In this document: in pieces, positions 1 to 61,104 of the stretch
How the letters are laid out: each line of letters begins with the position of its first letter
How positions within the stretch are numbered: the stretch's first letter is position 1
From: Candidatus Methanomethylophilaceae archaeon
GTDB lineage: Archaea > Thermoplasmatota > Thermoplasmata > Methanomassiliicoccales > Methanomethylophilaceae
Direction: 5' to 3'
NCBI GenBank assembly: GCA_944320495.1
Contig: CALUHR010000001.1
Location: 21,697-85,696, forward strand
DNA length: 64,000 nt
Position numbers and translations under genes: made by a program
The notes under the pieces: model-generated
What the model was told of the DNA's origin: nothing
Seen by the model: only the letters and a program-made list of their open reading frames with translations
Databases searched by the model: none

Positions 1-531
1 AAGCCCTCCGCCGACGGCTACCACGCGGAGATAGCGGCGAAGCTGGCGCCGCTTATGGAGCCCAACATGCCGCTGGTGCTCCTCGGCCCCGGGTTCGAGA
101 AGGAGACCCTCTCGGAGGACCTGAAGAAGGCGGATCCGTCCGCGTTCGGCAGGATGTACGTCTACCACACCGGTCAGTGCGGGATGGCGGGGATCAACGA
201 GCTCCTCAAGGGGGGCATGGGCGCCGACGTCCTCAGGGACTCCGCGGTCGGAACGGAGATCGAGGCCGTGGAGAGGCTGATGGCCGAGATATCCAAACCC
301 AACGGCCTGGGGACCTACGGGACCCAGGAGGTGATGGACGCCGCCATGGCCGGAGCGGTCGACACGCTGCTGGTGCTCGACTCCAAGGTCCGCGAGCAGG
401 ACATGGACGACGTGGTCCGCGCCGTGGAGTCCCAGAAGGGCAGCGTCATCGTGGTCTCGGGGCAGCACGACGGCGGTCGCGCCCTCGCATCCCTGGGGGG
501 CATGGGAGCCATCCTCAGGTACCGTCTCCGA
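1..531 (+). CDS. pelA: Pelota/Dom34 mRNA surveillance (ribosome rescue) protein, 5'-truncated; ends at CGA 529-531
   Basis: eRF1 domain 2/3-like motifs (LVLLGPGFEK, GTQEV..A..GAVDTLLVLD, GGMGAILRY). The family C-terminus coincides with in-frame CGA, followed by TATA-like AT-rich sequence. Confidence 0.9.
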
Positions 532-544
532 CGTCTCGCCGAGC

Positions 545-565
545 TTATATATCGCGCATTTATAT
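545..565 (+). promoter_or_regulatory. Archaeal TATA-like boxes (TTATATA, TTTATAT) upstream of the AksA/LeuA-like gene
   Basis: AT-rich island in GC-rich DNA lying inside the apparent pelota-AksA read-through linker. Confidence 0.6.
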
Positions 566-621
566 GGCGGGTCAGCGAAGGCCGTGCCAATGCGGGCATG
601 GACCATTCGGATGGGATGCAT

Positions 622-1806
622 ATGAAGACCAAGAGCGAGGTAGTAGAACGTCTGAACGCCCCCCTCTGCATCTGCGACTCCACCCTCGGAGCCGGAGAGC
701 AGGCCGCCGGTGTGGTGTTCTCGAACATCGAGAAATACAGGATCGCGCAGCACCTGGACAACGCCGGCGTCCCCCAGCTGGAGGTCGGGAACCCGATGGT
801 GGGTACCGAGGAGAAGACCGCCGTGAAGCACATCGCCCACATGGGGCTCAGTGCATCCGTCATGTCCACCAACAGGGCGGACATCGCGGACATCAACGCC
901 AGCATCGAGTGCGACGTGGACGCCGTCTCCATCTCGCTCCCCACCTCCCAGCTCCAGATGGCCGAGATCCTCGGCAAGGACTCCAACTGGGTGCTCGACA
1001 AGGTCTTCGAGGCCGCTTCGTACGCCGCGCAGCACGGCCTCTACATCTGCTGTGTCGCGGAGGACGCCTCCAGGGCCGACCTCGGTTTCCTCATAGAATA
1101 CGCCAAGGCCGCCAAGGACGCCGGCGCCGACAGGTTCGGCTACGCGGACAGCATAGGCGTCGAGGATCCCTTCACCTGCAACGAGCGCATCAGGATGCTC
1201 AAGCAGATCTCCGGAATGGACGTGGAGATCATCACCCGCAACGACTTCGGCATGGCCACCGCGAACACCGTCGCCGCCGTCAAGGCAGGGGCCAGGTTCG
1301 CCAGGGTCACCGCGATGGGAATCGGCCCCAGGGCCGGATGTGCCCCGCTGGAGGAGGTCGTCATGGCCTCCAAGCACGTCCTCGGAATGGACACCGGCGT
1401 GGACACCGCCAAGCTCCGCCCAGTCGCCGAGTCCGTGTCCGTAGCCTCAGGCATCTCCATCTGGCCCAGCAAGCCCATCATAGGATCCAAGTGCTTCGCC
1501 CAGGAGACCGGGTTCGTCAACAACCCCGCCGTCACGGAGCCCTACGACCCCGCAGAGGTCGGAACCGAGAGGTCCCTGGTCATCGGAAAGCACTCCGTCA
1601 GGAATACCATCGTCGCCGCCATGAGCGACATGGGCATCGAGATCAGCAGGAACGATGCGGAGAACCTCCTCGTCCTCGTGAGGAAGGCCTCCTCCCAGAT
1701 GCACCGCTGCCTCAACCAGAGCGAGCTGTTCCTGCTCTACGAGGATATGATGTCCGGCAACAACACCTTCGACGACGTCCCCGTCCAGGACGCATCAGTC
1801 CAGTGA
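622..1806 (+). CDS. Homocitrate/isopropylmalate synthase (DRE-TIM, AksA/NifV/LeuA)-like protein with degenerate active site
   Basis: DSTLGAGEQ, AEDASRAD, NDFGMATAN and IGKHS motifs align with the family. Start could also be 598 or 616. Confidence 0.8.
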   Translation: MKTKSEVVERLNAPLCICDSTLGAGEQAAGVVFSNIEKYRIAQHLDNAGVPQLEVGNPMVGTEEKTAVKHIAHMGLSASVMSTNRADIADINASIECDVDAVSISLPTSQLQMAEILGKDSNWVLDKVFEAASYAAQHGLYICCVAEDASRADLGFLIEYAKAAKDAGADRFGYADSIGVEDPFTCNERIRMLKQISGMDVEIITRNDFGMATANTVAAVKAGARFARVTAMGIGPRAGCAPLEEVVMASKHVLGMDTGVDTAKLRPVAESVSVASGISIWPSKPIIGSKCFAQETGFVNNPAVTEPYDPAEVGTERSLVIGKHSVRNTIVAAMSDMGIEISRNDAENLLVLVRKASSQMHRCLNQSELFLLYEDMMSGNNTFDDVPVQDASVQ

Positions 1807-1812
1807 AACCTC

Positions 1813-1832
1813 TCCGGCCCTCCGGGGCCGGA
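1813..1832 (+). terminator. GC hairpin TCCGGCCC-TCCG-GGGCCGGA after the AksA-like gene
   Basis: Perfect 8-bp stem just after TGA. Confidence 0.55.
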
Positions 1833-1918
1833 ATTATGCTATTCCTCATGTTCTAAGGTATTAATATCTAATCAGATACCATCAACAATATAAACCGAAC
1901 CCGAAGGTCTGGCGGTCC

Positions 1919-2299
1919 ATGACCATCCTGAGGGTAAGCGAACTTATCGAATGCAAGCACATGACGAGCATACTCGCCTGTCTGTACATGCGCGGATCCA
2001 TGGGCAAGAGCGAGATCTACGACACGATCTCCAACAGCCCCAACATGGCACTGAAGCTCCGCATCCTCTCCGATGAGGGGCTGGTGGAGTCGAACCAGGT
2101 GGGGAGGCGCACCGAGTACAGTCTGACCGAGAAGGGGAGCTCCGTCGCGGAGAAGCTCTGCGGGCTGGAGGAGCTCGTCTACGGGAGGGTCGGGGACCTG
2201 AACCACCTGGAGGAGGGGACAATCCATCTGGACGGGGACGTCCCCGACGAGACCCGCGACTGGTTCGAGGACCGCAGGAGGGGCTGTTGTCCCCTGCGA
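1919..2299 (+). CDS. Winged-helix (HxlR/ArsR-like) transcriptional regulator; ends at CGA 2297-2299
   Basis: wHTH pattern (KLRILSDEGLVE...RTEYSLTEKG). CGA directly abuts the TGA of convergent paaK (2300-2302); otherwise the ORF runs 960 nt antisense into paaK. Confidence 0.8.
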
Positions 2300-3601
2300 T
2301 CACTCGTAGCTCCTGTTGTCGGTGACGTGGTTCGCCTTGCCCTCGAACCTCTCCAGGGTCCCGGGCAGCTCGAGCCTGACGTCCGCCTTGATGTTGAGGA
2401 CGCTCTTCAGACGGGCCGAGAGGGTCTTGGACATCTCGGCCAGCTTGTTCATGTCCTCGGTGAGGTACTCCTCGTTGAGCTCGACCCTGACGGTCATGGC
2501 GTCCATGTAGTTGGCGTTCTCCAGGGTGATGTGGTAGAACGGGGAGAGGAACGGCAGCTCGCCGATGACGCTCTCGATCTGGGACGGGAACACGTTGACC
2601 CCGCGGACCACGAGCATGTCGTCGGTCCTTCCCGAGATCCTCGAGAGACGAGGGTGGGTCCTGCCGCAGGCGCACTTCTCCCAGGTGATCGAGGAGATGT
2701 CCCCCATTCTGTAACGGATCAGGGGGAACGCCTCCTTCTGGAGCATGGTGACGACGATCTGTCCCTTCTCGCCCTCGGCGCAGGGCTCGTCGTTCTCGTC
2801 GAGGATCTCGACGTAGGCCAGGTCGGCCCAGACGTGGATGCCCTGCTGCTCGGAGCATTCGAGGAACATGGGTCCGGACATCTCGCTGGCCCCGTAGCAG
2901 TTGTGGACGCGGACGCCGGTCCTGTCCTGGAGCTTCCTCCTCATGCTCTCGGACCAGGGCTCGCCGCCGGCGATGGCCAGCTTGACCTTGGTGTCCCTGC
3001 GGATGTCGACGCCGATCTTGTCGCAGACGTCGGCGATGTGGAACATGTAGGAGGGCGTCCCGGCCCAGGCGGTCACGGGGAGGTCCTGCATGAGCTGGAT
3101 CTGCCTCTCGGTGTTCCCGGTGCTTATGGGCAGGACGGTGGCGCCGATCCTCTCCGCACCGTAGTGGACCCCGAGCCCTCCGGTGAAGAGGCCGTATCCG
3201 TGGAAGTTCTGGAGCATGTCCTTCTTGGTCATGCCGAAGGAGGTCATGCCCCTGGCTAGGGACTCGGTCCAGTTGTCCAGGTCCTTCTGTGTGTATCCGA
3301 CGACGGTCGGTCTGCCGGTGGTGCCAGACGAGACGTGGATCCTGGTGATGTCGTCGTAGGGGACGGTGAACAGCTTGTCCGGGTAGTTGTCCCTCAGGTC
3401 GGACTTGCGCATGAACGGGACCTTGCGGAAGGCCTCGAAGCTGTCGATGTCCTCGGGGAGTACGCCGGCCTCGCGCATCCTGTCGTGGAAGAACGGGGAC
3501 TTGTCATACATCTCGCGCACCTTGGCCTTGAGCAGGCTGAGCTGGAGCTTCTCCAGTTCCTCGCGCGGCATAGTCTCGATCCTCTCGTTCCAGAACGCCA
3601 T
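2300..3601 (-). CDS. paaK: Phenylacetate-CoA ligase (copy 1)
   Basis: SSGTTGRPT AMP-binding loop, YGLFTGGLG, YGASE, GRTDDML..RGVNVFPSQIE. Confidence 0.92.
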   Translation of the reverse strand: MAFWNERIETMPREELEKLQLSLLKAKVREMYDKSPFFHDRMREAGVLPEDIDSFEAFRKVPFMRKSDLRDNYPDKLFTVPYDDITRIHVSSGTTGRPTVVGYTQKDLDNWTESLARGMTSFGMTKKDMLQNFHGYGLFTGGLGVHYGAERIGATVLPISTGNTERQIQLMQDLPVTAWAGTPSYMFHIADVCDKIGVDIRRDTKVKLAIAGGEPWSESMRRKLQDRTGVRVHNCYGASEMSGPMFLECSEQQGIHVWADLAYVEILDENDEPCAEGEKGQIVVTMLQKEAFPLIRYRMGDISSITWEKCACGRTHPRLSRISGRTDDMLVVRGVNVFPSQIESVIGELPFLSPFYHITLENANYMDAMTVRVELNEEYLTEDMNKLAEMSKTLSARLKSVLNIKADVRLELPGTLERFEGKANHVTDNRSYE

Positions 3602-3717
3602 TTCCGTACCCTCTGCTATGTGCTATCATCTAGCACGGTTGGTCGCAGTTATGCATGCCCGTATATAAGGAGTGCGATGAGAAAGGAAATACTCCCCAGG
3701 AGGGGAGGAAGTGTTTT

Positions 3718-4680: not shown

Positions 4681-4682
4681 GT

Positions 4683-6482: not shown

Positions 6483-7061
6483 ATGGGACAGCAGGACGTC
6501 TGGGACTCGTTCTACCGCTCCAACGGCCGGGCGTGGAGGGGCAACTGCAGGATGCCGGACCCGCTGGGAGGCGGGGGCGACGCCCTCGACCTGGGGTGCG
6601 GGAGCGGCAAGAGCGTGTCCACGCTGATCGACATGGGCTACAGGGCGGTCGGCCTCGACTTCTCGGATGAGGCCGTGTCCATGTGCAGGGAGAGGTTCGG
6701 CGGGGCGGCGGAGTTCGTCTCCGGCGATGTGCTGGCACTGCCGTTCGATGACGGTTCCTTCGACTATGTGACGGCTGTCCATGTGCTCGAGCACCTGACC
6801 GACGAGGCTCTCCGTACGGCTGCGGGGGAGATCGCGAGGGTCCTGCGCCCGGGCGGATACGCCTTCGTCAGGGACTTCGCCCCGGGGGACCTGAGATCGG
6901 AATCCAGGGAGGGGTCCGACATCAGGTACATTCACCGCACCCCCGAGGAGCTGGTCTCAGCGTTCGGGGACGTGGAGGTCGTGTCGGCTGGTGTCGTGGA
7001 GGAGAAGACGCGGTTCGGGGCGGTCCGCCGCCGTTCCGAGGTCCTCCTGAGACGCAGGCGA
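6483..7061 (+). CDS. Class I SAM-dependent methyltransferase; ends at CGA 7059-7061
   Basis: LDLGCGSG motif I, VGLDFS, LPFDDGSFD, RVLRPGG. First CGA is at the fold end, followed by TATA-like CTATATG and the next ATG. Confidence 0.85.
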
Positions 7062-7469: not shown

Positions 7470-7990
7470 TGGCAGTCTACCGCGGGAAGTACATACTCGA
7501 GGGTCTCGGAAGCATAAGCCCCGAGATGGAGCACAACCTCGACATCGCCTACGACATCTGCATGTCCTACAAGGGGGACTTCCCCTGCGAGATGTGCGGG
7601 AGGTGCTGCCACCAGCCCCACATAGTCGTGAGGCCGGAGGAGATCGACCGCGTCTCCACGGCCGCGGGCATCCCCCTTCCCGTCTTCATGACCGAGTACC
7701 TGGTACGCATGCCGGACGGAAGGTTCCTGTTCAGGAAGACCGATCCGTGCGCGTTCCTAGGGAAGGACAACAGGTGCACCATCTGGAAGGACCGTCCTCA
7801 GATCTGCGACGACTTCCCCTACGCGGTCTCGATGTTCATGAGCCGCGTGTATCTCGCGCTCACGAATCCTGACGCGGACATCATGTCCCTCATATCCTAC
7901 ATGGATGACGAGTGGCCGTGCACTCGCGTCATCAAGGCGGACATAGCCTCCAAGATAGAGGCGGCCCGCAAGGACGTCGTCGTCCAGCGA
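7469..7990 (+). CDS. YkgJ-family CxxCxxCC (Zn/Fe-chelating) protein; ends at CGA 7988-7990
   Basis: CEMCGRCC, CAFL...CTIW.DRPQIC..FP. TGATG overlap with the upstream gene. Confidence 0.82.
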
Positions 7991-8765
7991 TCGGGTGCTC
8001 CGAGAAGAAGCCGAGCAGCTCGTCCGCGTACGCGTCGAACGGTATGCCATGGCCCTGTCCCTCCAGGATGATCATCCTGCTGTCGGGGATGCGATCCGCC
8101 ACCTTGATCCCCTGCTCGCAGGGGACCATGATGTCCTCGTCGCCGTGGATGAGCAGTGTCGGTGCGGTTATTCCGAGGTCCGGCTCGCCGGAATCGTTGT
8201 CGCCGATGGCGTCCAGCTGCAGGAGGAGACCGTGCGGGTCCAGGGGCTCACGCGGCAACGGTGCGTCCCTCCCCTCGGCCTCGAACCTCCTGAACGTGGA
8301 CTCGGTCAGGCAGAACGCGTTTATCGACCTGAACAGGCACTCCATAGGGGCCCTCCCGTCCAGGACCATGCCGATCATCCCCCTCAGGACGTAATCCGAT
8401 CTGGCCGGTCTCTGGAGATAGGTCCCCACGAGGGTCAGGTCGGCGACCCTGTCGGGATGCCTGCAGGCGAGCTTTCTCGCTATGTGGGATCCCATGGACC
8501 AACCCACCACATGCGCCTTCCCGATCCCGAGTTCGTCCATGACGGCGACGGCGTCGTCCGCCATGTCGGCCATCGAGAAGGGTCCGTCGTACACGGTGTC
8601 GCCCACCCCGCGATTGTCCATCGTCACGCAGAGGCACCCATCGAGCAGAGGAGGTATCCTCCTCCAGTAGGAACCGGCGGCTCCGAACCCGGCCAGTAGG
8701 ATGACGGGCTCCCCGTCACCGGAGGTCTCGTAGCATATCCTGGCCCCGACGGATTCGGCGAACAT
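7980..8765 (-). CDS. Alpha/beta hydrolase; ends at CGA 7980-7982 (second CGA at 7977-7979)
   Basis: DNRGVG, GWSMG nucleophile elbow, IHGDED, GQGHG catalytic His near the C-terminus. Confidence 0.85.
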
Positions 8766-8836: not shown

Positions 8837-10075
8837 ATGTCCGAGTCCAAGAAGAGGATCCTTCTGATGGTCCTCGACGGTGCCGGTGACCGCGCCTGTC
8901 CCGAACTCAGGGGTCTCACCCCGTTGCAGCACGTCAGGACGCCGAACCTGGACTGGTTCGTCGAGCACGGGATCGCCGGGCTCTGCGATCCCATATCGCC
9001 CGGGGTGCGCGCCGGCAGCGACACCGCCCATCTCTCCATCCTGGGGTATGACGCCCGGGCCGTGTACACCGGCAGGGGTCCTTTCGAGGCCATCGGGGCG
9101 GGTGTGGACATACAGCCCGGCGATGTGGCGTTCAGATGTAACTTCGCCACCGTCAACAGCGACATGGAGATCCTGGACCGCAGGGCAGGCAGGATAAGGG
9201 AGCCTGAGACGGAACAGCTCGCCGAGGCGCTGGACGGCATAGAGATAGACGGGATCGAGTGCTCGGTCCACGCCGGAACGGAGCACAGGGCGGTGCTCGT
9301 CCTGAGGGGGGACGGGCTTTCGCCCGATGTCACGGACTGCGATCCGGGGGAGGACTCCCATCTGCTCAGGTGTGAGCCGCTCACCGAGGAGGCGCAACTC
9401 ACCGCGGACGTCGTCAACGGATTCCTGGACGAGGCCTACGAGAGGCTAAGGTCTCACACCGTCAACAGGAAGAGGTCCGCCGCCGGCCTCCCTCCGGCCA
9501 ACATTCTGGTCCCCCGTGGGGCTGGCGGATATCCCGACATCGAGTCGTTCCAGGAGAAGTACGGCATCAGCGCAACCTGCGTTGCCGGTGTCGGTCTCGT
9601 CAAGGGCATATGCAAGGTCTGCGGACTGGACGTCTATCCGCTCCCGCCAGTCTGCGACGGGGGCATGGACTCTGATCTCATCATGAAGATGGAGGGAGTC
9701 CTCGAAGCTCTCGAGGAGTACGATTTCGTCCTGATGAACATCAAGGCCCCGGACGTGGCGGGGCATGACGGCGACGCCAAGGCGAAGAGCGAGGTCATCA
9801 AGCGTATAGACGCGGCGGTGGGATTCTTCCGTTCCAGGATGCCTGAGGACCTGGTCGTCGTGATTACCTGCGACCACTGCACCCCGTGCTCGCTCCAGGA
9901 CCATAGTGGCGATCCGGTGCCCATAGCGTTCTACACCCAGGGCATGATCTGGGACGATGCCGGGGAGTTCAGCGAGACCGGATGCTCCAGGGGCATGGTC
10001 GGGAGGATCAGGGCGACAGACATCATCCCGATCTGCATGGACCTGGCAAACCGCACGTCGAAGTTCGGATCGTGA
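8837..10075 (+). CDS. apgM: 2,3-bisphosphoglycerate-independent phosphoglycerate mutase (archaeal type)
   Basis: LDGAGD, TPLQ..TPNLD, GSDTAHL, PDVAGHDG, TCDHCTP, HSGDPVP. Confidence 0.92.
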   Translation: MSESKKRILLMVLDGAGDRACPELRGLTPLQHVRTPNLDWFVEHGIAGLCDPISPGVRAGSDTAHLSILGYDARAVYTGRGPFEAIGAGVDIQPGDVAFRCNFATVNSDMEILDRRAGRIREPETEQLAEALDGIEIDGIECSVHAGTEHRAVLVLRGDGLSPDVTDCDPGEDSHLLRCEPLTEEAQLTADVVNGFLDEAYERLRSHTVNRKRSAAGLPPANILVPRGAGGYPDIESFQEKYGISATCVAGVGLVKGICKVCGLDVYPLPPVCDGGMDSDLIMKMEGVLEALEEYDFVLMNIKAPDVAGHDGDAKAKSEVIKRIDAAVGFFRSRMPEDLVVVITCDHCTPCSLQDHSGDPVPIAFYTQGMIWDDAGEFSETGCSRGMVGRIRATDIIPICMDLANRTSKFGS

Positions 10076-10522
10076 GCACAGGCCCAGTTGTACCGTGAGG
10101 CTACCTCCTGTGGTGACCGGGACCGTCAGTCCCGCCGAGATGTCCGGTGTTCCGTAACCGTCCCCGATGCTCGTCCCCAGGACGTCACCGGATGGTGCCG
10201 AGAACGACAGATCCAGCAGATACGGTCTCCCCTTGCAGAAAGCATCCAGAGACTCCTCGAGATATTCCAGCGCCTCGCCCTTTCCCGTGACCAGGGACAG
10301 AGCCGCCATGTCGGACAGGCGGACCAGCGTGTCGTCCCCCTCCGACATGTCCGACATGCGGACCTTGGAGGACATCACGTCCTCCAGGAACCCGTAGGCG
10401 TCCCTGTCGTCATCCGCACCGGTGTCCGCGACCTGGGTGACCACGGAGGCCGCGATCATTATGACGAAGATGAACAGCATGGCGTCGACCATGGCGACGA
10501 ATCCGCGGTCGCTCGTGCGCAC
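10070..10522 (-). CDS. Pilin-like protein with class III signal-type N-terminus; GTG start, ends at CGA 10070-10072
   Basis: MRTSDRG|FVAMVDAMLFIFVIMIAASVV. CGA lies immediately past the convergent apgM TGA. Confidence 0.65.
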
Positions 10523-13593: not shown

Positions 13594-15347
13594 AACTGCG
13601 CCTGCCGCCGTTCGCGACCATCATCCGCCCGTCGCCGGAGGACGATTTCGTCATCCCAGGGACCAAGGGCGGGGGACAAAACCCGCCCGGGAGACCTCCG
13701 TCCGCGCTCCAGAGGGCAGGGGGCAGCCCCTCGGCGTTCTCCGAGGCCTTCACGGTGCTCATGGGGGAGAACGTTCGCACCAAACCGTCATACACGGACT
13801 GCTGGATAGCATCGGTCCCCGAGCTCCGCCCGATCGCGTCGTACATGACAGACATGGGCTCCGTCCTCATCGGGCTGTCAGAGGGCGGTGAGACCGTGTA
13901 CTCCGTCACACCGAGGGAGTACGCGTACCCCGATCCGCTAAACGCGGTGGTGATGGACGTCATCGACGGGATCCGCGACGTGTACAGGGACGGCGGTGGG
14001 AGTCTGGACCGCGACACGGTCATGGGCATGACCCGCTCGGTCCTGACAGATAGGTGGGACGACCTGGAGAGGGCGTGCGGGGGCGGGGACGTGGAGTCGG
14101 TCATGAGGGACGTCTGCGCCATTGCGTACCGCCATTCCGTCGGCGCGGGGATATTCGAGGTCCTGCTGGCCGACCGCCACATCGAGGACATCTATGTGGA
14201 CGCACCTTGCAGCATGAACCGCATCCACGTCACGGTGAACGGGATCAACGGTCTGAACTCCCACATCAGATGCTCCACCAATCTGATGGCGGAGGAGCGC
14301 GAGGTATCCAACCTCCTGAACATCCTGAAGAGGGACAGTGGCCTTCGCTTCTGCAGGTCCTGCCCCGTCCTTGAGACGGATATGCGCGGGTTCGACGCGA
14401 GGGCGACCGTGGTGGGCTACCCGCTCAGCCCCAGGGGGAACGCGATTGCCATCAGGAAGCACTCCGTACGCCCGTGGACCCTTTCCCGTTTGATCGCCAA
14501 CGGCACCGTCAGCCCGAGGGCAGCCGGCATCCTCTCGTTCATAGTCAACAGCAGGGCGACCGTCCTGATATGCGGGGCGCGCGGGGCAGGCAAGAGCGCC
14601 CTCCTCAGCGCCCTGATGTTCGAGTTCCCGCTGAGCCAGAGGATACTCACCATCGAGGACACCCTGGAGCTGCCTGGAGACCACATGAGGAGGATGGGCT
14701 ACAAGGTGCAGACCATGCTGGTGGACGACCGCATCCAGGGGTCCGTCTCATCCCGCTCCGACGAGGCGTTGCGCGTGTCCCTGAGGCTGGGGGAGTCGGC
14801 GATAGTCATGGGGGAGGTCCGCGGGGAGGAGGCCAGGACGCTCTATCAGAGCATGCGCGCGGGCCGCGCCGGGAGCGCGATCATGGGCACGGTGCACGGC
14901 GACTCCGCCGCATCCGTCTACCAGAGGATGGTCTTCGACATGGGCATCCCACCCGAGGCGTTCGGCGCCACGGACATACTGGTGACCCTCGGGACGGTGA
15001 GGGACAGGCGCACGGGGAACCTCATCCGCAGGGTTAACGAGCTGGTGGCCACCGGTACATCCCCGGGAGAATTCCTGGATGTCTCAGGGGTGGACGGGCT
15101 TCTCGCATCGCCGTTCGCAGAGAGGGCCCTGTCCTCCCTTCAATTGGGCCGCAGGGACGTCGTGAAGGAGATCAGGGCGAGGTCGATGATGCGCTCGTAT
15201 CTGGCGTCCCTCGGCACCGAGGACGAGGGGTTCCTGGGACCGGAATGGGTCCTGGCGTCGAACGAGATCCTCGCCGGAATGCCCCAGTCGGCTTCCGCGG
15301 AGGAAGCCCTGGCCGTGCTGAAGGGGAGGACCGGTAGGGATGACCGA
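13590..15347 (+). CDS. Type II/IV secretion (VirB11/TadA-like) ATPase; ends at CGA 15345-15347
   Basis: Walker A GARGAGKS, TIEDTLEL, MGEVRG, GTVHGD. CGA 3 nt after the ATG codon of the next gene. Confidence 0.9.
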
Positions 15348-16728
15348 TCCGAGGAGGCTGACCAACGAGGGCCCGACGGTCGTCGGGCTGATGACCTCCG
15401 TCATAGAGTCGGGGGGATCCCTGGATACGGCGGCCAGGGCGGTGTCCGAGGAGGGGCCGAGACTCTCCGCTGAGCTGTTCTCCGGAGCCGTGAGGCTCAC
15501 GGACACCAAGGGCTCCGTCGGAATCTCTCAGGCGCTATCCGAATCGCTTTCCGTTCTGCCGGAGTCCGCTTCGGGCTACAGGCAGGCGATGCTGCTGTGC
15601 ATCTCCGCATCCGAGGCGGCCGAACCGCAGGAGAGGCTCAGGATCCTCAAGGAGGCTTCCGATGTGGCCCTGGACGCCGTGCGCATCATTGGGGAGAAGT
15701 ACGCCGCAGGCCTCTCCACGCCGTGCATGGCGGTCTTCGGCCTGGGGATAATGGCACCTATGATCCTGATGTCCATACTGCCGATCATGGGCCTCGGCGG
15801 GATGTTCGCTGAGATGCCGGTGGACAGCGGCACGATGCTCATGGCGACTCTGGTCCTGATCCCGGCGGCGATTCTCTGCCTGGCGTACTGGCTGCGCCAA
15901 TCGAACCCGTTCCTGGAGCGTTCGGGGAGTCCCCGCGACGCGGTGTGCGCACTACCACTCCTCACAGCAATCCCGCTCTATCTGGCGATGATGTCCCTGC
16001 GCACGGGGGCCGTGGAGGCCCTGATTCTCTCGATCGCCCCGTCCGCGGTGGCCTGTCTGATAATGATGTTCGACGGCCGCAGGGCGGACCAGGCCAGGGC
16101 CAGGTCCGAGAAGGGGCTGAGGGACTGCGTCTTCGAGCTTGGCAACTCCCTGCTGGGAGGAGACAACTTCGAGACCGTGGCCGTGGAGGCTGTGTCGTCC
16201 AGGGTCGAGTGCAGGGATGTGGGCACTGCGCTCAGCAGGGAACTCGACCTGTGCAGGGGAGATGTCCGCGGTGCGATCAGGAGATCGGTGGGACCGGTAT
16301 CGCCCGAGGTCTCCAGGACCCTCTGCGACATCCAGCACTGCTCCGAGAAGGACACCGAGGACGCGGGGAGGTTGGCCATCGCCGTGGGGAGGCAGTACCA
16401 GAACACGTCCAACATCAGGAACGAGCTGGGCCTGAAGCTCAAGGGGATGACCGACATGATGGTGGGCACGGCGATGCTGTTCGCCCCGATGGTCCTCGGG
16501 ATGAGCACATCGATGCTCGGGCCGCTAAGCGAGATATCCGGATACGCCGGCCTTGAGGGCACGGAGGTGGTGCTGGCCGTGTATCTCGTAGAGCTCTGCG
16601 CGATCATCGCCGTGCTCACGTCGAGCCTGGGGGACGGCGATGGCATCAGGGGGATGGTGTGGAGGTTCTGTCTCTCGTGTCCGATCGCCCTGGTCGTGTT
16701 CTGGTTCTGCATCGGGGTCCAGCTCCGA
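15340..16728 (+). CDS. TadB/TadC (T2SS F-domain)-like platform membrane protein; ends at CGA 16726-16728
   Basis: Two repeats of a soluble domain plus TM helices, next to the ATPase. CGA three codons before TAA. Confidence 0.75.
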
Positions 16729-16760: not shown

Positions 16761-17264
16761 ATGGACGGCAGGACCAGACTGTTGGTGGCGGGATGCATCG
16801 CATCTGGGGTGGTACTCGCCCTGATGTTCCTGTCGCCCCTCCTATCCCCCTACGGTCTCTTCAGGGGGCTTGACGGGTCCCCCGGATTCATAGACGGAGG
16901 CTGGGAGGGCGGAGGCCCGGCCAGTCTGGCGTATCTGCTGGGGGATCTCGTCTGTCATCAGGAGGAGGCCAGGAGCCTGATCCTGAACGGCTCCCAGATG
17001 CCCGTCTGCGCGAGGGACACCGGGATCCTCATAGGTCTCACGATCGGTTTCGCCGCATGTCTGCCCATCGGCAACAGGCTGGCGGACAGGCGCATCGCGG
17101 CCCTGGGCGTGGTGCTCGTAGCGGTCATGGCGGTCGAGTGGCTTGTGGAGACGACGGGCTTCGATTCGCAGGCCTGCAGGCTCATCTCTGGGGTTTCTGC
17201 CGGGGTCGGTGCGAGCCTATTTCTGGCTTGGATGCTATATAGGCAGGATGACCGGGGAGAGCGA
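16761..17264 (+). CDS. DUF2085-like membrane protein; ends at CGA 17262-17264
   Basis: CHQ...RS.......PVCARDTGI motif plus TM helices. Short overlap with the ATG at 17248. Confidence 0.8.
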
Positions 17265-17970
17265 CGCGGGTATCGACTGGGAGTACGGCAGGGCCGCCTC
17301 CGATGCGGTGGAGTGGCTCCTGAAGGAGGGATTCCTGAAAGAGGACGACTGCTCCATGAACGTCGCCTGCGGTCGCGGCGGATTCGCCGTTCCGATGAGC
17401 AGGGCGGTCCGTGTGCTGGTCTGCATGGACAGCAGCAGGGACTCCCTCGACATAACCGGTCAGCGCTGCGCCGGGGGATGTCGCACCGAGCTCTTTCAGC
17501 AGGACTGGCGCTCCTACGTCCCCGCCAGGGGGAGGTACGACTCATGTGTCATGTCGCCGTCGTACCTGTGCTTCAACATGGAGGCCATACGCAGGATCGA
17601 GACAGTCTCCAAAAGGGGATGCGCCGTGGTCTTCCCGCTAGAGTTCGACTACCGCAGGCTCCGGAAGGGATTCCTCCAGAGTCTCGGCGTCGATGCGGGC
17701 TTCCTGTCGATGCCGGAGTTCCCTGACCCGCGCCCGTTCGCCGTCTGGCTGTCGGAGAAGGGCAGGAACATGGAGACGCGTCGCTTCCAGTCCACAGTGG
17801 AGTGTCCCGACGAGGTCTTCAGGACGGCGATCGTCCGCGATTCCGTCCTTCACGGGGCCGACGAGGCCGCCGCAGCCTCCATGGCCGACAGATACGTCTC
17901 GAAGGTCAGCAGGGGCGGTGCGGTCAAGTACAAGTTCTCCGCCAACGTCGTTGCCTGGAACATGGTGCGA
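17248..17970 (+). CDS. SAM-methyltransferase-like fold protein; ends at CGA 17968-17970
   Basis: MNVACGRGG motif I, VLVCMDSS motif II. Confidence 0.6.
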
Positions 17971-29719: not shown

Positions 29720-30346
29720 TCGGTGCCTGAGCTTGTCCTTCCACGACCTCTTCAGATTGCCGTCCTTGTCGAACTTGGTCCTCATCAGCTTGTCGTAGTT
29801 GCTCCGGATCTTCGGGTCGGCCGGCTTGATCTCCATCAGCAGCTCCAGCTCCGCCTTCGCCTTCCGATAGTCCTTGAGATCGTTCAGGAGCAGGACCGCG
29901 TAGTTCTGATGGTAGACGTAGTTGGACGGATCCGTGGCGATAGCCTTCTCGTAGAATTCGCCCGCCCTCCTGAAGTCAGTTATCTGGTTGCGGAGGAATC
30001 TGGCATACTCGTTGTACAGGTCGCCAGAGGGACAGAGTTCCACAAGTCTTTTGAAGAGCTCGTCGGTCTCCTTGTTGTTCCTCTTGTCGCGGGCGAGGAC
30101 CGAGACCTTCGCCTTCATGGCATCGGTGTTGACGGGGTCCAGATCCAGGATGACGTCCAGCTGCATCAGCCCGTAGCTGACGTCCTGGAGGTCCCTGATG
30201 GCGATCTCCGCGAGGACCAGCCTGGGCTTGGTGTTGTGCGGGTCTGTGGCCAGATACGCCTCCAGCGTGTTAGCGGCTCCCGTGGGGTTGCCGCTGGACG
30301 CCTGGTTCCTCGCCTTGGTGATGGCCTCGAATGCCGGATCGCTCAT
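29720..30346 (-). CDS. TPR-repeat protein; ends at CGA 29720-29722
   Basis: TPR-like helical repeats (LEAYLATDPHN, YEKAIATDPSN). CGA follows a basic tail KRSWKDKLRH. Confidence 0.75.
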
Positions 30347-31078: not shown

Positions 31079-31918
31079 GTGGATCGCAGTTCCATCGATC
31101 GTTCGGATTCATCCGGTAGGAAGGAGCCGGATGAGGGCAGGAGTTTCGATGTCGATGCATATCTGGCTCGCATCGGGATGCCCCGTCCCTCCGAGCCGGA
31201 TCTCGGATACGCCGACTCCCTGGTCCTCTCGCATCAGTGCTCGGTCCCATTCGAGAATCTGGACTGCTACGACCTTGGGAAGGTCCCGGACACATCGATG
31301 GGAGCCGTGTTCGCGAAGGTCGTCCGCGATCATCGCGGCGGGTACTGCTTCGAGATCAACAAGCTGTTCTCCCGTCTGCTCTCGGAATGCGGATACAGGG
31401 CGTGGCCGATATCCTGCAGCGTCCTTCACGGCAGCGACCATGCGGAGATGATGCTTCATCGCGCCACGCTGGTCGAGATCGACGGCTCTGTCTACTACTG
31501 CGATGTCGGCATCGGAGGTCCGCAGCCTGCCGGGCTTGTCCCCCTGGACGGATCCAGGACCCTTCTAGGAGAGCACTATTCCGTCGAGAGGGACGATGGG
31601 CCCTGGTGCTATCTGGTCCGCCATCGCGACGACGGCACATGTGCCAGATTGGTCGCGTTCCTCGACTTCCCCGTGCCGGATGGGTTCTTCGTTCCATTCA
31701 ACCACTACTGCTCCACCAGCGCGGATTCCAAGTTCACCAGGAGGCGCATCGTCAACATGCGCACGCATCGCGGCAGCCTGTCCCTCGTGGGCGGGACACT
31801 GACCGAGCGTTGCGACGGGAGGACCACCGTGACGGAATACGATCGCTGCGAGGATCTGGCAATGATGCTCCGCGAGAAGTTCGGGATAGAGGTCCAGCCG
31901 TCCGATCTGAGGGTGCGA
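31079..31918 (+). CDS. Arylamine N-acetyltransferase family; ends at CGA 31916-31918
   Basis: YLARIG, VPFENLD, RGGYCFE (catalytic Cys), His and YCDVG Asp triad. CGA 10 nt before the convergent stop. Confidence 0.88.
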
Positions 31919-36017: not shown

Positions 36018-36491
36018 ATGGAAGTCGGCGACAGGTTCCCGGAGTTCAGGCTCAGGGACGAGAACGGCGAGGAGCTGGACAGCTCGTCGCTGGAGGGCAT
36101 AAGGTACGTGATCTACTTCTATCCGAAGGACAACACGCCCGGATGCACCAAGGAGGCCGAGGAGTTCAGCGCCAGCATCGGGCAGTTCCTGATGCGCAAC
36201 ATCCCTGTGATAGGTGTGAGCAAGGACTCCGTCGAATCCCATCGGAAGTTCATCGACAAGCACCAGCTCAGGGTGAAGCTCCTCAGCGATCCCGACCACG
36301 AGCTGATGGAGAAGGTCGGCGCCTGGGGCACCAAGGTCTCCTACGGCAAGGAGACCGTCGGCACCATCAGGTCGACCTTCCTGGTCGGCAGGGACGGGAC
36401 CGTCGAGGCCGTCTGGCGCAACGTCAAGGTCAACGGGCATGTGGACAAGGTCCTCGCATGCGCCGTGTCCTGTTCGAAATCGAAGAGCTGA
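36018..36491 (+). CDS. bcp: Peroxiredoxin (BCP family)
   Basis: YFYPKDNTPGCTKEA. Confidence 0.93.
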   Translation: MEVGDRFPEFRLRDENGEELDSSSLEGIRYVIYFYPKDNTPGCTKEAEEFSASIGQFLMRNIPVIGVSKDSVESHRKFIDKHQLRVKLLSDPDHELMEKVGAWGTKVSYGKETVGTIRSTFLVGRDGTVEAVWRNVKVNGHVDKVLACAVSCSKSKS

Positions 36492-44371: not shown

Positions 44372-45739
44372 ATGAGCAACGTCTGTCCCTTGGACTACAG
44401 GTACGGTCGCGAGGACATGAAGAATGTCTTCAGCGAGGACAGCCGCATACGCAACGAGATGCTCGTCGAGGCCGCCCTCGCCAGGGCGCACGCCTCTCTC
44501 GGCACCATCCCGCAGTCTGCGGCCGACGAGATCACCCGCGCTGCGACGCTGGACGTCGTCAGCGTCGACAGGATAAAGCAGATCGAGTCGGAGACCCGCC
44601 ACGACCTCATGGCCATGGTCAAGGCCGTGACCGAGAAGTGCGAGGGGGATGCCGGCAAGTACGTCCATCTCGGAGCAACATCAAACGACATCGTGGACAC
44701 AGCCACCGCCCTCCAGCTCAAGGAGGCCATGGGCATCGTCCTCGAGGACGTCGACAACCTGATCATGACGTTCGCCGCCCTGGCCAAGAGGGAGAGGGAC
44801 ACCCTCGAGATCGGCAGGACGCACGCGCAGTTCGCCATCCCGATCACCTACGGGTTCAAGGTCGCCGGATACATCGCGGAGATGATCAGGCACAGGGAGA
44901 GGATCATAGAGGCCATGCCCAGGGTGTGCGCCGGCAAGATGGCCGGTGCCGTCGGTACTGGAGCGGCCCTCGGAGCCAACTTCTTCGAGGTCCAGCGCAG
45001 GGTGATGTCCGATCTCGGGCTCACCTACGAGCCCGCGGCTACGCAGGTCGTCGGACGCGACAGGTACACCGAGGCCATATGCCTCATGGCGAACATCGCC
45101 GCATCCCTCGAGAGGTACTGCACCGAGGTCAGGAACCTCCAGAGGTCCGAGGTCGCCGAGGCGTCCGAGTACTTCGACGTGTCCAAGCAGGTGGGCAGCT
45201 CCACGATGGCTCAGAAGAGGAATCCGATGAACTCCGAGAACGTCTGCGGTCTGGCCCGCGTCATCCGCGGATTCGTCACGCCCGCCTTCGAGAGCCAGAT
45301 TCTCTGGCACGAGAGGGATCTGTGCAACTCCTCCACCGAGAGATTCACCCTGCCCCATGTGTTCGTCCTCATCGACGAGATTCTCAAGAAGACCGCCTGG
45401 ATCTACTCCGGGCTGGAGATCCATCGCGACAGGATGCTCGAGAACATCGAGTCCTCCCGCGGACTGGTCATGGCCGAGCCCCTCATGATGAAGCTCACCG
45501 AGAAGGGCATCGGCAGGCAGGACGCGCACGAGATCATCCGCTCATCCGCCATGGTCGCCGAGGACACCGGCAGGCACCTGAGGGATGTCCTGATGGAGAG
45601 GGAGGACCTCAAGGGTGTCCTCACCCCGGAGGAGATCGTCGCCACCATGGATGCCTCCAACTACGTTGGCGGAGCCAGGGAGATCGTCGACAAGATGGTC
45701 GCCGCCGCCGAGGACGTCGTTGGAAGGAAGGTCGAGCGA
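44372..45739 (+). CDS. purB: Adenylosuccinate lyase; ends at CGA 45737-45739
   Basis: PLDYRYG, TRHD, HLGATSND, GRTH, GSSTMAQKRNP signature. CGATG overlap with the next start. Confidence 0.95.
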
Positions 45740-50708: not shown

Positions 50709-52085
50709 TTGCCGAGCGATCACGAAATCTATGGTACGATGCAGGTCGGCCAGCTCTTCGCCAGATGCGCGGTTCCGGGCGTCATCTCTGGTCTGGTGTG
50801 GGCGCTCTGCTCCATCGCGGACGGGATCTTCGTGGGCAACTATCTCGGCAGCGATTCGCTGGCCGCCGTGAATCTGGCTTGGCCCGTCATGACCGTCGTC
50901 ATGGCGCTGGTGGATATGATAGCGGCCGGCTCCTCGGTCAGGATCTCGATGCATCTCGGCTCGGGGGATGTCGAATCAGCCAGGAGGGTCTTCTCGGGAT
51001 CGGTCCGGTTCATTGTCGTCATATCGGTTCTTTTCACCCTGTTCGGGGTGTTTCTCGCCGATCCGGTTGTACGCGTATTCGGCGCCGAAGGTGAGCTGGC
51101 CGAAGTCACTGCCCAGTACATCGCCGTATTCAGTCTGTTCGCTCCTGTGGGTCTGTTGTTCTTCGCCACGGACAACTACCTGAGGATATGCGGAGCCGTC
51201 GGGCTGAGCATGTGGATCAACGTGGGCGTCACGGTCCTCAACATAGGGCTCCTGGCACTGCTGATCGGCGTGATGGGGTACGGGACTTGGGCTAGCGCTT
51301 TCGCCACGGGCTTCAGCGTCTGCGTGGGTTCGGTGGTCGCCCTGGTCCCCTTTCTCCGCGGGAGGTACGTGCTCACATTCGTTAGGGGATGGATGGATCT
51401 GCGCACCACGGCCCGCGTGATGTACAACGGGATCTCCACGTTCTTCAACGGTGTCTCCGGGTCGCTCTACATGATGGTGGCTAACACTGTGCTCCTGGCG
51501 ATCGCGGGCAATGCCGGCGTCTCCTCCTTCGGGATCATCATGTACGTGAACTCGGTGATCGGGTCGCTGTTCTTCGGTACGGCGTCGGCCATGCAGCCGG
51601 CGCTCAGCTACAACCACGGTGCTGGCGACGGTCACAGGGTGAGGTCGCTTTCCGCGGTCATGTTCGCCGTGTCCATGGCGATGGGCGTCGGCATGTGCGC
51701 CGCATGCATCCTATTGGACGACGGTATCGTGTCTGTCTTCCTGAGCGACGGCGACTCATCCGTGGCGGCGATGGCCGCTGCCGGTCTCTCGATATATGCG
51801 TTCTCGTACCTCACGATGTGGGCGTCCACGGAGGTCAACCAGGTCCTGGCTGCGACGGACCTCCCGACGTACGCGCTGTCTGTCGGCGTGACGTCCCAGC
51901 TCGTCATACCGGTACTGCTCCTGCTCCCGATGTCGGAATGGGGGGTGGACGGCGTGTGGTGGTCGATGGTCCTTGGTTATGCGGTGTCCGCTGTGTTCGC
52001 GGCGGTCATGCTGTTCCTGGGCATCCGCAGGGGGATATTCTCGGCAGGATCCCCGTGCCCTCCGTCCGATCCCGATGCATTCCGA
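50709..52085 (+). CDS. MATE family efflux transporter; TTG start, ends at CGA 52083-52085
   Basis: DGIFVG..LG...LAAVNL, QPALSYNHGA. GGAGGT RBS before TTG. CGA precedes the iorA TATA-like CTATAAC. Confidence 0.85.
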
Positions 52086-54586: not shown

Positions 54587-54979
54587 TCAGTCCCCTGTTT
54601 TCATCGCATCCCACCTCATGGGGAGAAGCTCGCGGAGCGTCATGGCGGAATCGTTCGTCACGGCCACCTCCGCCTCCAGGTTCCCGTGGTCGATCTGGCT
54701 GAGGAGCTCCCTGCACCTTCCGCACGGCGGGATGACCCTGCCGTCCTTGTACACGGTGGCGATGCGGACGACCCTCGTGCGACCGGTTCCGAGCATGGCC
54801 GCAACCGCAGCGTGCTCCGCGCAGAAGCCCATGGAGCATGGGACGTCGATGTTCACGCCGGTGAATATCTCGCCGTCGGACGTCTCGAGGGCGCATCCGA
54901 CCAATCCCGATTCGCCGTCGCGGAAGCTGATCGGGATGCGAGCATCCGATGCCCTGGCAATGAGCGATTGCATGTCCAT
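54587..54979 (-). CDS. cdd: Cytidine deaminase (small CAE/PCGxC type)
   Basis: VGCAL, TGVN, CAEHAAV, PPCGRCRE, LRELLP. Confidence 0.85.
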   Translation of the reverse strand: MDMQSLIARASDARIPISFRDGESGLVGCALETSDGEIFTGVNIDVPCSMGFCAEHAAVAAMLGTGRTRVVRIATVYKDGRVIPPCGRCRELLSQIDHGNLEAEVAVTNDSAMTLRELLPMRWDAMKTGD

Positions 54980-56295: not shown

Positions 56296-56314
56296 CTCAC
56301 TTGCAAGTAGTCTA

Positions 56315-56600: not shown

Positions 56601-56687
56601 GGGCCCAGCCAGTTCGGCCGTCGGCCCGCTCTCCACGACACCTATTAATGCTATATCCTAATCGCGTGCGCATAGAGGGTACACCAG

Positions 56688-59570: not shown

Positions 59571-59574
59571 TGGG

Positions 59575-60030
59575 ATGTTCATAGACATCGCTCGCTCCAG
59601 GCACAGCTGCAGGTCCTACACGGAGGCGCCCCTGTCGGACGAGCAGGTCCGCCTGATTATGGAGGCCGGCGAGCTCGCCCCCTCCTCCAGGGACCTCCAT
59701 CCAGTGAGGCTCATCCCCGTGTCGGACATCCCGACGATCAGGAGGCTGGCCGGATGCAAGGACCATGGCGCCGAGCCCCTGCGCGGGGCGACCTTCGCCG
59801 TCGTCGTTGCAGCAGACGAGGGGAAGGCCGACACATGGCTGGAGGACGCATCAATCGCATCCATTATGATGCAGCTGGAGGCGGAGGACCTCGGGATCGG
59901 CTCGTGCTGGATCCAGATCCACCTCAGGTCCCTGGGCGACCGTCCCGCGGAGGACGTCGTCAGGGAGATCATGGGTCTGGAGGACGGCACCAGGGTGCTG
60001 TCCGTCATCTCCTTCGGAAGGAAGGCATGA
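59575..60030 (+). CDS. Nitroreductase family protein
   Basis: RHSCRSY, LAPSS, DASIA, LGIGSCWI. Confidence 0.9.
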   Translation: MFIDIARSRHSCRSYTEAPLSDEQVRLIMEAGELAPSSRDLHPVRLIPVSDIPTIRRLAGCKDHGAEPLRGATFAVVVAADEGKADTWLEDASIASIMMQLEAEDLGIGSCWIQIHLRSLGDRPAEDVVREIMGLEDGTRVLSVISFGRKA

Positions 60031-60548
60031 TCGTCGAGCCCCTGCATCCCCAGGACGTCGAGGCCGCTCGGTCGCTGTATCTGGATGCGTTCCCGGAGTA
60101 CGAGCGCGCGGAATGGGAAGCTCTCGTCAACAATTCGGGATGGGGGGATGCAGAGCTGCTCGGGATATACGATGCCGGCCTTGCGGGCATCTCGTATGTG
60201 ATATTCGACGAGACGTTCCTCTTCGTCCTCTATCTCGCCATCGAACCCTCCCGCAGGGGGACGGGCGTGGGCTCCGGGGCATTACGCATCATCGAGAGCA
60301 TGTATTCCCATGGCAGGACATTCCTCAACGTAGAGCCCACGGACGAGGCCTGCGACAATCCCGAGCAGCGTTTACGCAGGGTGGCCTTCTACGAGCGCTG
60401 CGGTTACTCCGCAGCATGGAAGCTCGTCATCGACGAGAACGAGAAGTACACGGTCATGTGCAAAGGGGTCCCGATAACCCCTGACGAGATGGAATCCTTC
60501 AGGGTCAGGCACGGCTTCTCAAGACTGTTCGGGCATCAGGGGGAACGA
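60027..60548 (+). CDS. GNAT acetyltransferase; ends at CGA 60546-60548
   Basis: YLAIEPSRRGTGVGS, RRVAFYERCGY. ATGA overlap at the start. Confidence 0.85.
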
Positions 60549-60555
60549 TCCGACG

Positions 60556-61104
60556 TCGTTTCCATCTCTCATACAGTGAGTGCTCGATCCCGACCTGGTC
60601 CAGGCACCTGCCCACGACTATGTCCACGATGTCGCTGACGGTCCTGGGTCTGGGATAGAACCCCGGGTTGGCATCGACGATCGTGACGCCCAGTCTAGCG
60701 AGCTTCAGTTCGTTCTCCAGCATGATGGCGCTCTTGGGCGTCTCCCTGACCAGCAGGACGAGCCTCCTGTTCTCCTTTATGCACACCGATGCCGCACGGG
60801 ATATGAGGGTGTCGGCTATGCCGTTGGCGAACTTGGCAACGGAAGATTCGCTGCACGGGGCGACGAACATCGCTTCGTAGCGGAAGCTTCCGGATGCGAT
60901 AGAGGCGAACATCTCGTCGTCGGAGAAGACCTGGTCGGCCATGGACTCGACCTGTTCGACCGTGTAGTCGGTCTCGGCGGGGATGATCTCCCTGGCGGTG
61001 CGGGACATGACGAGTATCCTCTCGCCCTTCAGCTCCTGAAGGAGCCTTATCCCGTAGATGGCACCGGATGCGCCCGATATGGCGACGACGTACCTCACGA
61101 CCAT
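60556..61104 (-). CDS. ubiX: Flavin prenyltransferase; ends at CGA 60556-60558
   Basis: ISGASGAIYG, IASGS, APCS, RAA.V.IKE.R.LVL..RETP, PGFY, terminal RW. Confidence 0.92.

Follow-up and report, generated by a model that had tools for sequence, protein, structure and literature searches.

CGA serves as a gene-end codon in a Methanomethylophilaceae archaeon from the genus of 'Ca. Methanoprimaticola sp. MG2'. This was first noticed in the initial annotation of a 64,000-nucleotide stretch of the genome (the window), and our analysis confirmed it: genome-wide, about 24% of gene ends in the source genome (G000, a chromosome of about 1.8 Mb) are CGA. These terminal CGAs are read as a candidate archaeal sense-to-stop change, a reading supported by the drop of the coding signal at them, the Pfam domains that end before them, the interchange of TGA and CGA at ortholog ends and the scarcity of CGA inside genes. 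To our knowledge, sense-to-stop code changes are established in organelles only, and this genus would be the first case in a free-living organism. With a probability of roughly 0.65, we propose that CGA is a fourth, somewhat leaky stop, which the single aRF1 of the organism would read in competition with a weakened tRNA-Arg(UCG), with feedback on aRF1 itself.

All 18 coordinates listed in the initial annotation hold an in-frame CGA at the point where the coding signal ends (Table 1). Read with four stops, the upstream frames run uninterrupted over 144 to 599 codons, and the standard code would extend the 18 frames by 2 to 424 codons. At most sites the codon-usage score indicated coding sequence before the CGA (up to 0.55) and non-coding sequence after it (0.06 to -1.63); the upstream score was weak (about 0.04 or less) at the second pilin-like, TadC-like, DUF2085-like and MATE genes, and we consider the MATE site the least certain of the 18. 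Gene ends scored within the window comprise 36 TGA, 16 CGA and 2 TAA (54 in total). Pfam domains stop before the terminal CGA in those window genes with a match. The extensions that would result from reading CGA as Arg are non-coding in composition and run into neighbours or make implausible fusions, such as that of pelota with an HMGL-like protein. Syntenic orthologs, compared at 12 of the sites (Table 1), terminate at the same codon or within about three codons of it, with TGA, TAA or CGA, except for wHTH, for which they were too diverged to align.

Table 1. CGA gene ends in the window. Positions on the minus strand run from the listed coordinate to that coordinate plus two; scores are codon-usage scores.
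Gene end	Position	Strand	Observation at the site	Relatives
pelota (...GAILRYRL)	529..531	+	eRF1_3 runs to residue 176, directly before CGA; HMGL-like protein starts after CGA	TGA 0-2 codons later; CGA CGA in G045
wHTH	2297..2299	+	score 0.43 upstream, -0.73 downstream	orthologs too diverged to align at the end
methyltransferase	7059..7061	+	no Pfam match past residue 264	TAA or TGA 2-3 codons later in G009, G013
alpha/beta hydrolase	7980..7982	-	convergent overlap with YkgJ-like gene; Abhydrolase_1 ends at 244/261	CGA CGA in G045
YkgJ-like	7988..7990	+		TGA at same position in G013 (alignment end q58 plus two codons, one residue past Q60)
pilin-like 1	10070..10072	-		TGA 1 codon later in G013, G043
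pilin-like 2	10513..10515	-		same position: TGA in G013, CGA in G045
VirB11/T2SSE-type ATPase	15345..15347	+		TGA at same position or one codon earlier in G013, G043, G046
TadC-like membrane protein	16726..16728	+		same aligned position: CGA in G009, G013, G045, G046; TGA in G043
DUF2085-like	17262..17264	+		TGA at same position in G046
methyltransferase-like	17968..17970	+		TGA at same position in G009 (alignment end q58 plus two codons)
TPR	29720..29722	-	score 0.27 upstream, -0.27 downstream	
arylamine N-acetyltransferase (NAT)	31916..31918	+	Acetyltransf_2 matched to profile position 236/240 at residue 273/279	
etfA	36480..36482	-	ETF_alpha ends at 313/353; 167-codon extension scores non-coding	
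purB (...GRKVE)	45737..45739	+	overlaps ATG of next gene (CGATG); ADSL_C ends at 441/455	same codon: CGA in G018; TGA or TAA in ten other species of the genus
MATE transporter	52083..52085	+	upstream score weak; TAA 9 codons later	
GNAT-like	60546..60548	+	convergent with ubiX; score 0.27 upstream, -0.72 downstream	
ubiX (...YERWK)	60556..60558	-	Flavoprotein domain ends at 193/205	

The same pattern extends across the G000 genome, where 313 of 1301 long ORFs end at CGA (372 of 1535 in a second count) and in-frame GC3 drops to 0.58 after the terminal codon. CGA is absent from the 307,385 codons of long four-stop ORFs, but this absence is by construction, as CGA ends those ORFs; the comparison that is not built into the ORF definition is the ratio of internal to terminal-like CGA, which was 11/334. 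Chance is excluded because CGA is very common off frame, at up to 7% of codons in two non-coding frames, whereas the in-frame CGAs of 1.77 Mb comprise only about 3 plausible internal ones as against 334 to 372 terminal ones. CGA is thus nearly absent from conserved sense positions in G000, as in a sense-to-stop reassignment. An internal set selected on GC3 only had placed many CGAs at conserved Arg, and was rejected because antisense shadow frames contaminated it; the set used here comes from a six-frame codon model.

A second mark of such reassignment, alignment of the codon with the stop codons of orthologs, was found for purB, for the window genes and across the genome. Of 67 orthologs aligned to CGA-ended G000 genes, 56 have TGA or CGA at precisely the corresponding codon, which matches the figure for TGA ends (300 of 350), and the interchange runs in both directions, with CGA in G045 and G009 where G000 has TGA. 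Both comparisons, homolog stop positions and internal CGA counts, had been proposed as checks in the initial annotation, and both came out in its favour. CGA gene ends are shared across independent assemblies from different studies and assemblers, including the RefSeq genome of MG2, which was assembled at a coverage of about 420 and is presumably from an organism in culture. In MG2, CGA closes the TadC-like gene and accounts for about 11% of gene ends.

It is very unlikely that CGA means Arg throughout, with the apparent ends being coincidence or tolerated C-terminal extensions, or that CGA is a sequencing or assembly error for TGA. A tRNA-Arg(UCG) gene does exist, and public gene calls pass through CGA, as in the 485-aa PurB from an NCBI source. 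Against this stand the identical ends in separately produced assemblies, the non-coding extensions that hit neighbouring genes or create fusions, the scarcity of internal CGA despite its off-frame abundance, and the lack of the pattern for control codons and in other genera.

The taxonomic spread was surveyed in G000, seven congeners and eight other genera of the family. The CGA-end pattern is present in eight of eight sampled species of the genus, with internal/terminal-like counts in the seven congeners of 0/24, 0/24, 3/27, 2/22, 0/8, 0/4 and 2/3. In the eight other genera, CGA is an Arg codon only, rare or unused (6/0, 10/0, 12/1, 0/0, 0/0, 1/0, 1/1 and 14/0). By these counts, the trait is a property of the whole genus rather than a peculiarity of G000. 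The species counted are related to each other, and few independent events therefore lie behind genus-wide correlations. Literature searches turned up no account of termination at CGA for Methanomassiliicoccales.

The CGA stop appears to be somewhat leaky. Its share of gene ends is 3.3% in the top codon-bias decile as against 34% in the bottom 40%, and an extra stop lies within five codons downstream of 44% of CGA ends compared with 27% of TGA ends; we take both the avoidance and the back-up stops as signs of leakiness. No sequence motif distinguishing terminal CGAs was found in their flanking contexts except a T at +4. Frameshifting at CGA was ruled out because neither the purB comparison nor the CGA contexts revealed a nearby out-of-frame stop pattern.

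Two in-frame CGAs are conserved in the genus. The first lies in the gene of aRF1 itself, at the conserved Arg78, and shows no synonymous change in 75 of 76 genus-type loci, in which the preceding codon is GCT or TCT and the neighbouring codons vary synonymously around an invariant NCU-CGA-CUN context. The other Arg codons of this gene are AGG (271), AGA (54), CGT (46), CGC (26) and CGA (2), and codon 78 in other genera is AGG, CGC, CGT, AGA or CGA. No conserved RNA structure was found around CGA78. The second joins the two domains of a gmhA-gmhB fusion, gmhA(SIS_2)-CGA-gmhB(HAD). The junction codon is CGA in all six genus species examined, the HAD motif begins four residues past it, and the second domain has no start of its own, the arrangement of programmed read-through, in which a conserved in-frame stop separates domains. 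In the one readable outgroup the genes form a continuous fusion with Lys at the junction, and one congener has them split by TAA. On the conservation of both sites, CGA is not a pure stop and has to be still decoded as an amino acid at aRF1 Arg78 and at the gmhA-gmhB junction.

Such decoding would fall to tRNA-Arg(UCG). Its possible loss had been suggested, but the tRNA is kept in every genus member examined (20 of 20 species), each with a defect beside the anticodon. The defect is a 31.39 mismatch (a.a, c.a or t.c) in 16 species, in which compensatory changes preserve the other four stem pairs, and C33 in the other four; outside the genus the tRNA is canonical (defect in 0 of 20). We infer that the 31.39 or C33 defect weakens the tRNA and lowers decoding. 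Short anticodon stems are reported to be linked to broader rather than weaker decoding (PMC13092985).

The release-factor set of the genome consists of a single aRF1 and pelota, with no paralog, and aRF1 is the probable reader of CGA. Recognition of a first-position U by eRF1/aRF1 is normally strict. In the motifs that had been singled out for inspection (NIKS, YxCxxxF and the GTS loop of aRF1), no substitution fixed in the genus and absent elsewhere was found. The factor has Arg at aligned position 123, the x of YxCxxxF, which is also present in genera without CGA stops, and a genus-typical Asn (N51) at the residue aligned with human D54, adjoining E55; this Asn is found in two loci of other than genus type as well. 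In the GTS loop, G28S (human G31 in the alignment) was rejected as a cause, since only G000 and G018 have it and CGA stops do not require it.

These data allow us to propose a mechanism. aRF1 would accept CGA as a codon close to UGA, which is its main stop, and the retained but weakened tRNA-Arg(UCG) would compete with it. Termination would win at almost all CGA codons, so that CGA is purged from coding sequence, and gene ends could drift between CGA and TGA by a single T/C transition. The in-frame CGA of aRF1 is probably regulatory, in that high aRF1 activity would cause more premature termination on its own mRNA. At gmhA-gmhB, partial read-through would yield both GmhA alone and a GmhA-GmhB fusion. 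We lean slightly towards a fuller version, in which the genus has been caught at an ambiguous-intermediate stage: aRF1 would add CGA to the three usual stops, tRNA-Arg(UCG) would be kept in a deliberately weakened form for the two in-frame CGAs, the aRF1 site would serve as read-through feedback on termination capacity, and the gmhA-gmhB site would set the ratio of short to fused enzyme.

The proposed feedback follows the logic of bacterial RF2 (prfB), which is autoregulated via an in-frame UGA, minus the frameshift. In both, an early in-frame copy of a codon read by the factor itself (for aRF1, its candidate stop codon) is conserved across the clade. prfB, however, depends on a +1 frameshift and a Shine-Dalgarno-like stimulator, whereas the aRF1 frame runs on through CGA at a conserved Arg and read-through by tRNA-Arg is required. 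The site is not a member of the prfB mechanism, yet by analogy it may work like it.

Alternatively, C-to-U editing could turn CGA into UGA in the mRNA, with unedited copies read as Arg. This would account for interchange exclusively with TGA and, if editing were partial, for the dual use of CGA; we nevertheless consider it unlikely. We know of no mRNA C-to-U editing in archaea. Stop-creating CGA-to-UGA editing is established in plant mitochondria (PMC10983754), where a genomic CGA likewise stands at the protein end, but the plant-organelle process needs PPR-type factors and is visible as RNA-DNA differences. In a search for PF00383 only, the genus had no extra deaminase, one copy being found everywhere in the family, and the T at +4 is the only motif that terminal CGAs offer. 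Editing would also leave the conserved aRF1 CGA and the altered tRNA-Arg(UCG) without a reason.

Another possibility is that CGA is not a true stop, being unassigned or very slowly decoded, and that stalled ribosomes are rescued by Pelota/ABCE1 with peptidyl-tRNA hydrolase or by unspecific aRF1. The near-disuse of CGA in several sister genera (0/0, 0/0, 1/0 and 1/1) suggests such a stage, the altered tRNA-Arg(UCG) and the avoidance of CGA ends in high-codon-bias genes fit it, and a yeast study presents CGA termination as stalled-ribosome rescue (PMC7379694). It would be costly if a quarter of genes depended on stalling, however, and the compensatory stem changes place the tRNA under structural selection. 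The two conserved in-frame CGAs need decoding, and the occurrence of one specifically in aRF1 points to aRF1 as the sensed factor, so that we judge rescue an improbable explanation.

The proposed termination at CGA by aRF1 has a precedent in the same yeast work, in which termination by eRF1/eRF3 at CGA, competing with tRNA-Arg, is detectable and is raised by UGA-biased L123 mutants of eRF1, including L123R (Wada and Ito 2018, PMC7379694). The factors are homologous class-I release factors, and the genus aRF1 has Arg at the corresponding x of YxCxxxF; the yeast event is a minor side activity seen with reporter genes, whereas in G000 about one gene in four ends naturally with CGA.

AGA and AGG are stops in vertebrate mitochondria, and UUA is a stop in Thraustochytrium. 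UCA is a stop in the mitochondria of Scenedesmus and other green algae (PMC6821328). In these organelle codes, as in the genus, the sense codon is lost within genes and turns up at their ends. The genus differs in that the codon is CGA, on the roughly 1.8-Mb chromosome of an archaeal cell with a single aRF1 and no dedicated paralog, and in that the cognate tRNA and two conserved sense uses are kept. Codons with two outcomes, set by competition or context, are known from UAG/pyrrolysine in methanogens, an ambiguous stop/sense codon (PMC12626013; bioRxiv 10.1101/2024.09.30.615893), and from ciliates without dedicated stops (PMC4967479). There a stop gains sense, whereas here a sense codon gains stop. 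The organisms of the genus also carry the Pyl system. A possible CGA stop was raised for two hydrothermal-vent archaeal assemblies, in which CGA is absent from recognised domains (Melnykov 2026, bioRxiv 10.64898/2026.04.02.715157). Those archaea belong to another lineage that reads CGG as Trp; no tRNA(UCG) was found and stop positions were not examined, in contrast to the genus, in which stop positions are shown comparatively and tRNA-Arg(UCG) is present.

If the proposed reading is true, the codons open to takeover by an eRF1/aRF1-type class-I release factor are not limited to those with a first-position U. Genetic-code expansion uses PylRS/tRNA-Pyl pairs from this family, so its translation apparatus also has practical relevance. 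Because standard gene callers read through CGA, as for the 485-aa PurB, false tails, fusions or overlaps would be present in the annotation of about one protein in four in these common gut methanogens. The genus seems to hold an intermediate state, in which the stop is leaky, the tRNA is still present and the gene of the release factor carries a feedback site; codon capture and ambiguous intermediate, the long-debated models of how the code evolves, would become open to direct tests in it.

The initial annotation had placed 18 gene ends in the window, between 529 and 60558, at an in-frame CGA, and such a codon was present at every one (18/18). Under the standard code these frames would extend 2 to 424 codons further. 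With the genome under study (G000) as its training set, a six-frame codon model scored the 40 codons 5' of each CGA against the stretch 3' of it; at most of the 18 sites the score was coding-like before CGA and non-coding-like after it, the upstream score being weak (about 0.04 or less) at the second pilin-like, TadC-like, DUF2085 and MATE genes. The Pfam domains of the window proteins terminate 5' of CGA. The prediction that reading CGA as Arg creates false fusions was borne out by pelota, whose last Pfam domain ends at the residue preceding CGA 529 and which shares one frame of 601 codons with a separate downstream HMGL-like enzyme of the homocitrate/isopropylmalate synthase type; judged from its sequence, this open frame is a clear false fusion. 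Syntenic regions from five congeners allowed a comparison at 11 of the 18 sites; there the ortholog's stop, TGA, TAA or CGA, coincides with the CGA of G000 or lies no more than about three codons away. The TadC-like gene ends in CGA in four of five relatives and in TGA in the fifth. For PurB, G000 shares the terminal CGA with its nearest relative, and ten other species have TGA or TAA at that codon. The 54 scored gene ends of the window comprise 36 TGA, 16 CGA and 2 TAA.

The same usage extends across the G000 assembly (1.77 Mb, 14 contigs, 62% G+C), in which the window occupies C1:21697-85696. The 1301 long, compositionally coding ORFs end in TGA (913), CGA (313), TAA (43) or TAG (32), and the codon model gives 1091, 372, 52 and 20, respectively. 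CGA is among the commonest trinucleotides in G000, and two non-coding frames contain it at up to 7% of their codons. In 334 in-frame cases coding-like sequence gave way to non-coding sequence at the CGA, and in only 11 were both flanks coding-like; for the other Arg codons this ratio is reversed. Read one by one, about three of the 11 are real, the rest being either wrong-frame tails or stops whose downstream neighbour gene lies in the same frame; the count of internal CGA that the initial annotation had proposed as a check thus shows them to be near-absent. The alignment with homologous stop positions, also proposed there, agreed: in seven congeners, the codon that aligns exactly with a G000 CGA end is TGA or CGA in 56 of 67 orthologs, and the same test at TGA ends gave 300/350. 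Some G000 TGA ends are CGA in the congeners G045, G009, G018 and G046. Given this exchange at aligned ends, CGA and TGA behave as synonymous terminators, one transition apart.

TAG ends are rare in G000 and absent from the 54 scored window genes, and the frame behind them stays open for a median of 112 codons until a standard stop is reached. G000 has PylS, and TAG is probably read as pyrrolysine.

Terminal-like CGA outnumbers internal CGA in all eight members sampled of the genus, which also holds 'Candidatus Methanoprimaticola sp. MG2' (internal/terminal-like 2/22, 3/27, 0/8, 0/24, 0/4, 2/3, 0/24 and, in G000, 11/334), and CGA makes up about 5% to about 33% of their gene ends. Eight other genera of the family lack the pattern (6/0, 10/0, 12/1, 0/0, 0/0, 1/0, 1/1 and 14/0), CGA being nearly unused in four of them. 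Because these assemblies derive from separate studies and were built with different assemblers, an artefact of a single data set was excluded. At least 60 species of this large GTDB genus were sampled. The G000 aRF1 protein matches, at 100% identity, the one encoded by a gut MAG with the label 'uncultured Methanomassiliicoccales archaeon', and UBA480 and MG2 are 91-92% identical at this locus; other relatives are labelled Methanomethylophilaceae. Several public MAG records with the archaeal aRF1 locus (L126, L128, L129, L138, L142, L145, L146, L173) bear bacterial titles (Ruminococcus sp., Bifidobacteriaceae, Lachnospiraceae, Prevotella hominis, Dialister hominis and others), which are probably wrong.

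CGA accounts for 3.3% of G000 gene ends in the top codon-bias decile and 34% in the bottom 40%, and the five codons after the end include another stop, whatever its kind, for 44% of CGA and 27% of TGA ends. Both features look like signs of a weak stop. T directly follows 54% of terminal CGAs, stop-start overlaps explaining part of this (CGATG 19%, TGATG 8%). CGATCG hexamers are enriched at CGA ends (50/313, against 43/913 for TGATCG at TGA ends), as at window 7988-7993.

The proposed loss of tRNA-Arg(UCG) did not hold, as the gene is present in G000 and conserved in the genus; together with two conserved in-frame CGAs, it indicates that CGA remains decodable. The first lies in the aRF1 gene, at codon 78, which corresponds in alignment to R81 of human eRF1. 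This codon is CGA in 75 of 76 genus-type loci, with GCT or TCT before it and CTN after it. The surrounding codons differ synonymously among these loci, and elsewhere in the gene Arg is encoded by AGG, AGA, CGT or CGC; codon 78 of other genera is AGG, CGC, CGT, AGA or CGA. The context of the aRF1 site, T before and C after, is a combination rare at terminal CGA. The second lies at the junction of the SIS_2 (GmhA-type) and HAD (GmhB-type) domains in 6/6 genus species examined. The HAD motif starts four residues past this CGA and lacks a start codon. In most other genera the fusion is a single open frame (the only junction codon read there is Lys), and TAA splits it in one congener. This CGA is a candidate for programmed read-through, which would yield two products. 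A flavodoxin-like gene has CGA within its domain (...GKTI[CGA]PFCTNEGSG...); the nearest matches in relatives, which are paralogs, have His, Val or Gly at this position. A recent mutation, a pseudogene or tolerated sense use could each account for it.

Coordinates of features discussed in the text
Feature	Position	Strand	Location
Pelota and HMGL-like enzyme, one frame	1-1806	+	window
Second PF00383 match	54689-54913	-	window
aRF1 gene with in-frame CGA at Arg78	G000:C2:85936-87165 = L013:1495-2724	-	outside window
gmhA(SIS_2)-gmhB(HAD) fusion with in-frame CGA	G000:C13:193675-194718	-	outside window
Flavodoxin-like gene with internal CGA	G000:C8 around 55685	+	outside window
PylS	G000:C9:67854-68522		

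The tRNA-Arg(UCG) of the genus has a defect next to the anticodon. Positions 31 and 39, the lowest pair of the anticodon stem, are mismatched (a.a, c.a or t.c) in 16 of the 20 genus species, and the other four stem pairs are maintained through compensatory changes; in the remaining four species, position 33, at which U is near-universal, is C. Outside the genus, 20/20 have a paired 31-39 and U33. Such a defect would weaken CGA decoding. We infer, as the favoured reading, that CGA would be directly recognised by the single aRF1 (no paralog was found in G000) in competition with this weakened tRNA. Yeast eRF1/eRF3 terminates at CGA with low efficiency, in competition with tRNA-Arg, and UGA-biased eRF1 variants at L123, including L123R, raise CGA termination (PMC7379694). 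Methanomethylophilaceae aRF1 has Arg at the aligned position, and where the human factor has D54, adjoining E55, that of the genus typically carries Asn; neither is exclusive to the genus. In G000 and G018 alone, Ser replaces the Gly aligned with human G31 in the GTS loop. C-to-U editing of CGA to UGA would also produce a stop but appears unlikely, no genus-specific PF00383 deaminase having been found. A second, weak PF00383 (cytidine/dCMP-deaminase-like) match of 30.7 bits in the window is absent from four other genus genomes sampled. We consider it similarly improbable that ribosomes stall at CGA and are then rescued. Under direct recognition by aRF1, the in-frame CGA of its own gene may sense termination capacity, a feedback logic that would be shared with prfB but without the prfB frameshift.

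We know of no sense-to-stop change established in any cellular genome. Such changes are established in mitochondria (PMC6821328), and a 2026 preprint goes only as far as suggesting a possible CGA stop in two unrelated vent archaea (10.64898/2026.04.02.715157). A literature search yielded no description of termination at CGA in Methanomassiliicoccales, and papers on the Pyl code of Methanomethylophilaceae do not mention CGA. Public gene calls for these genomes read through CGA: the NCBI-source PurB record has 485 aa, including a false tail of 30 residues, where most cluster members have 455-461.
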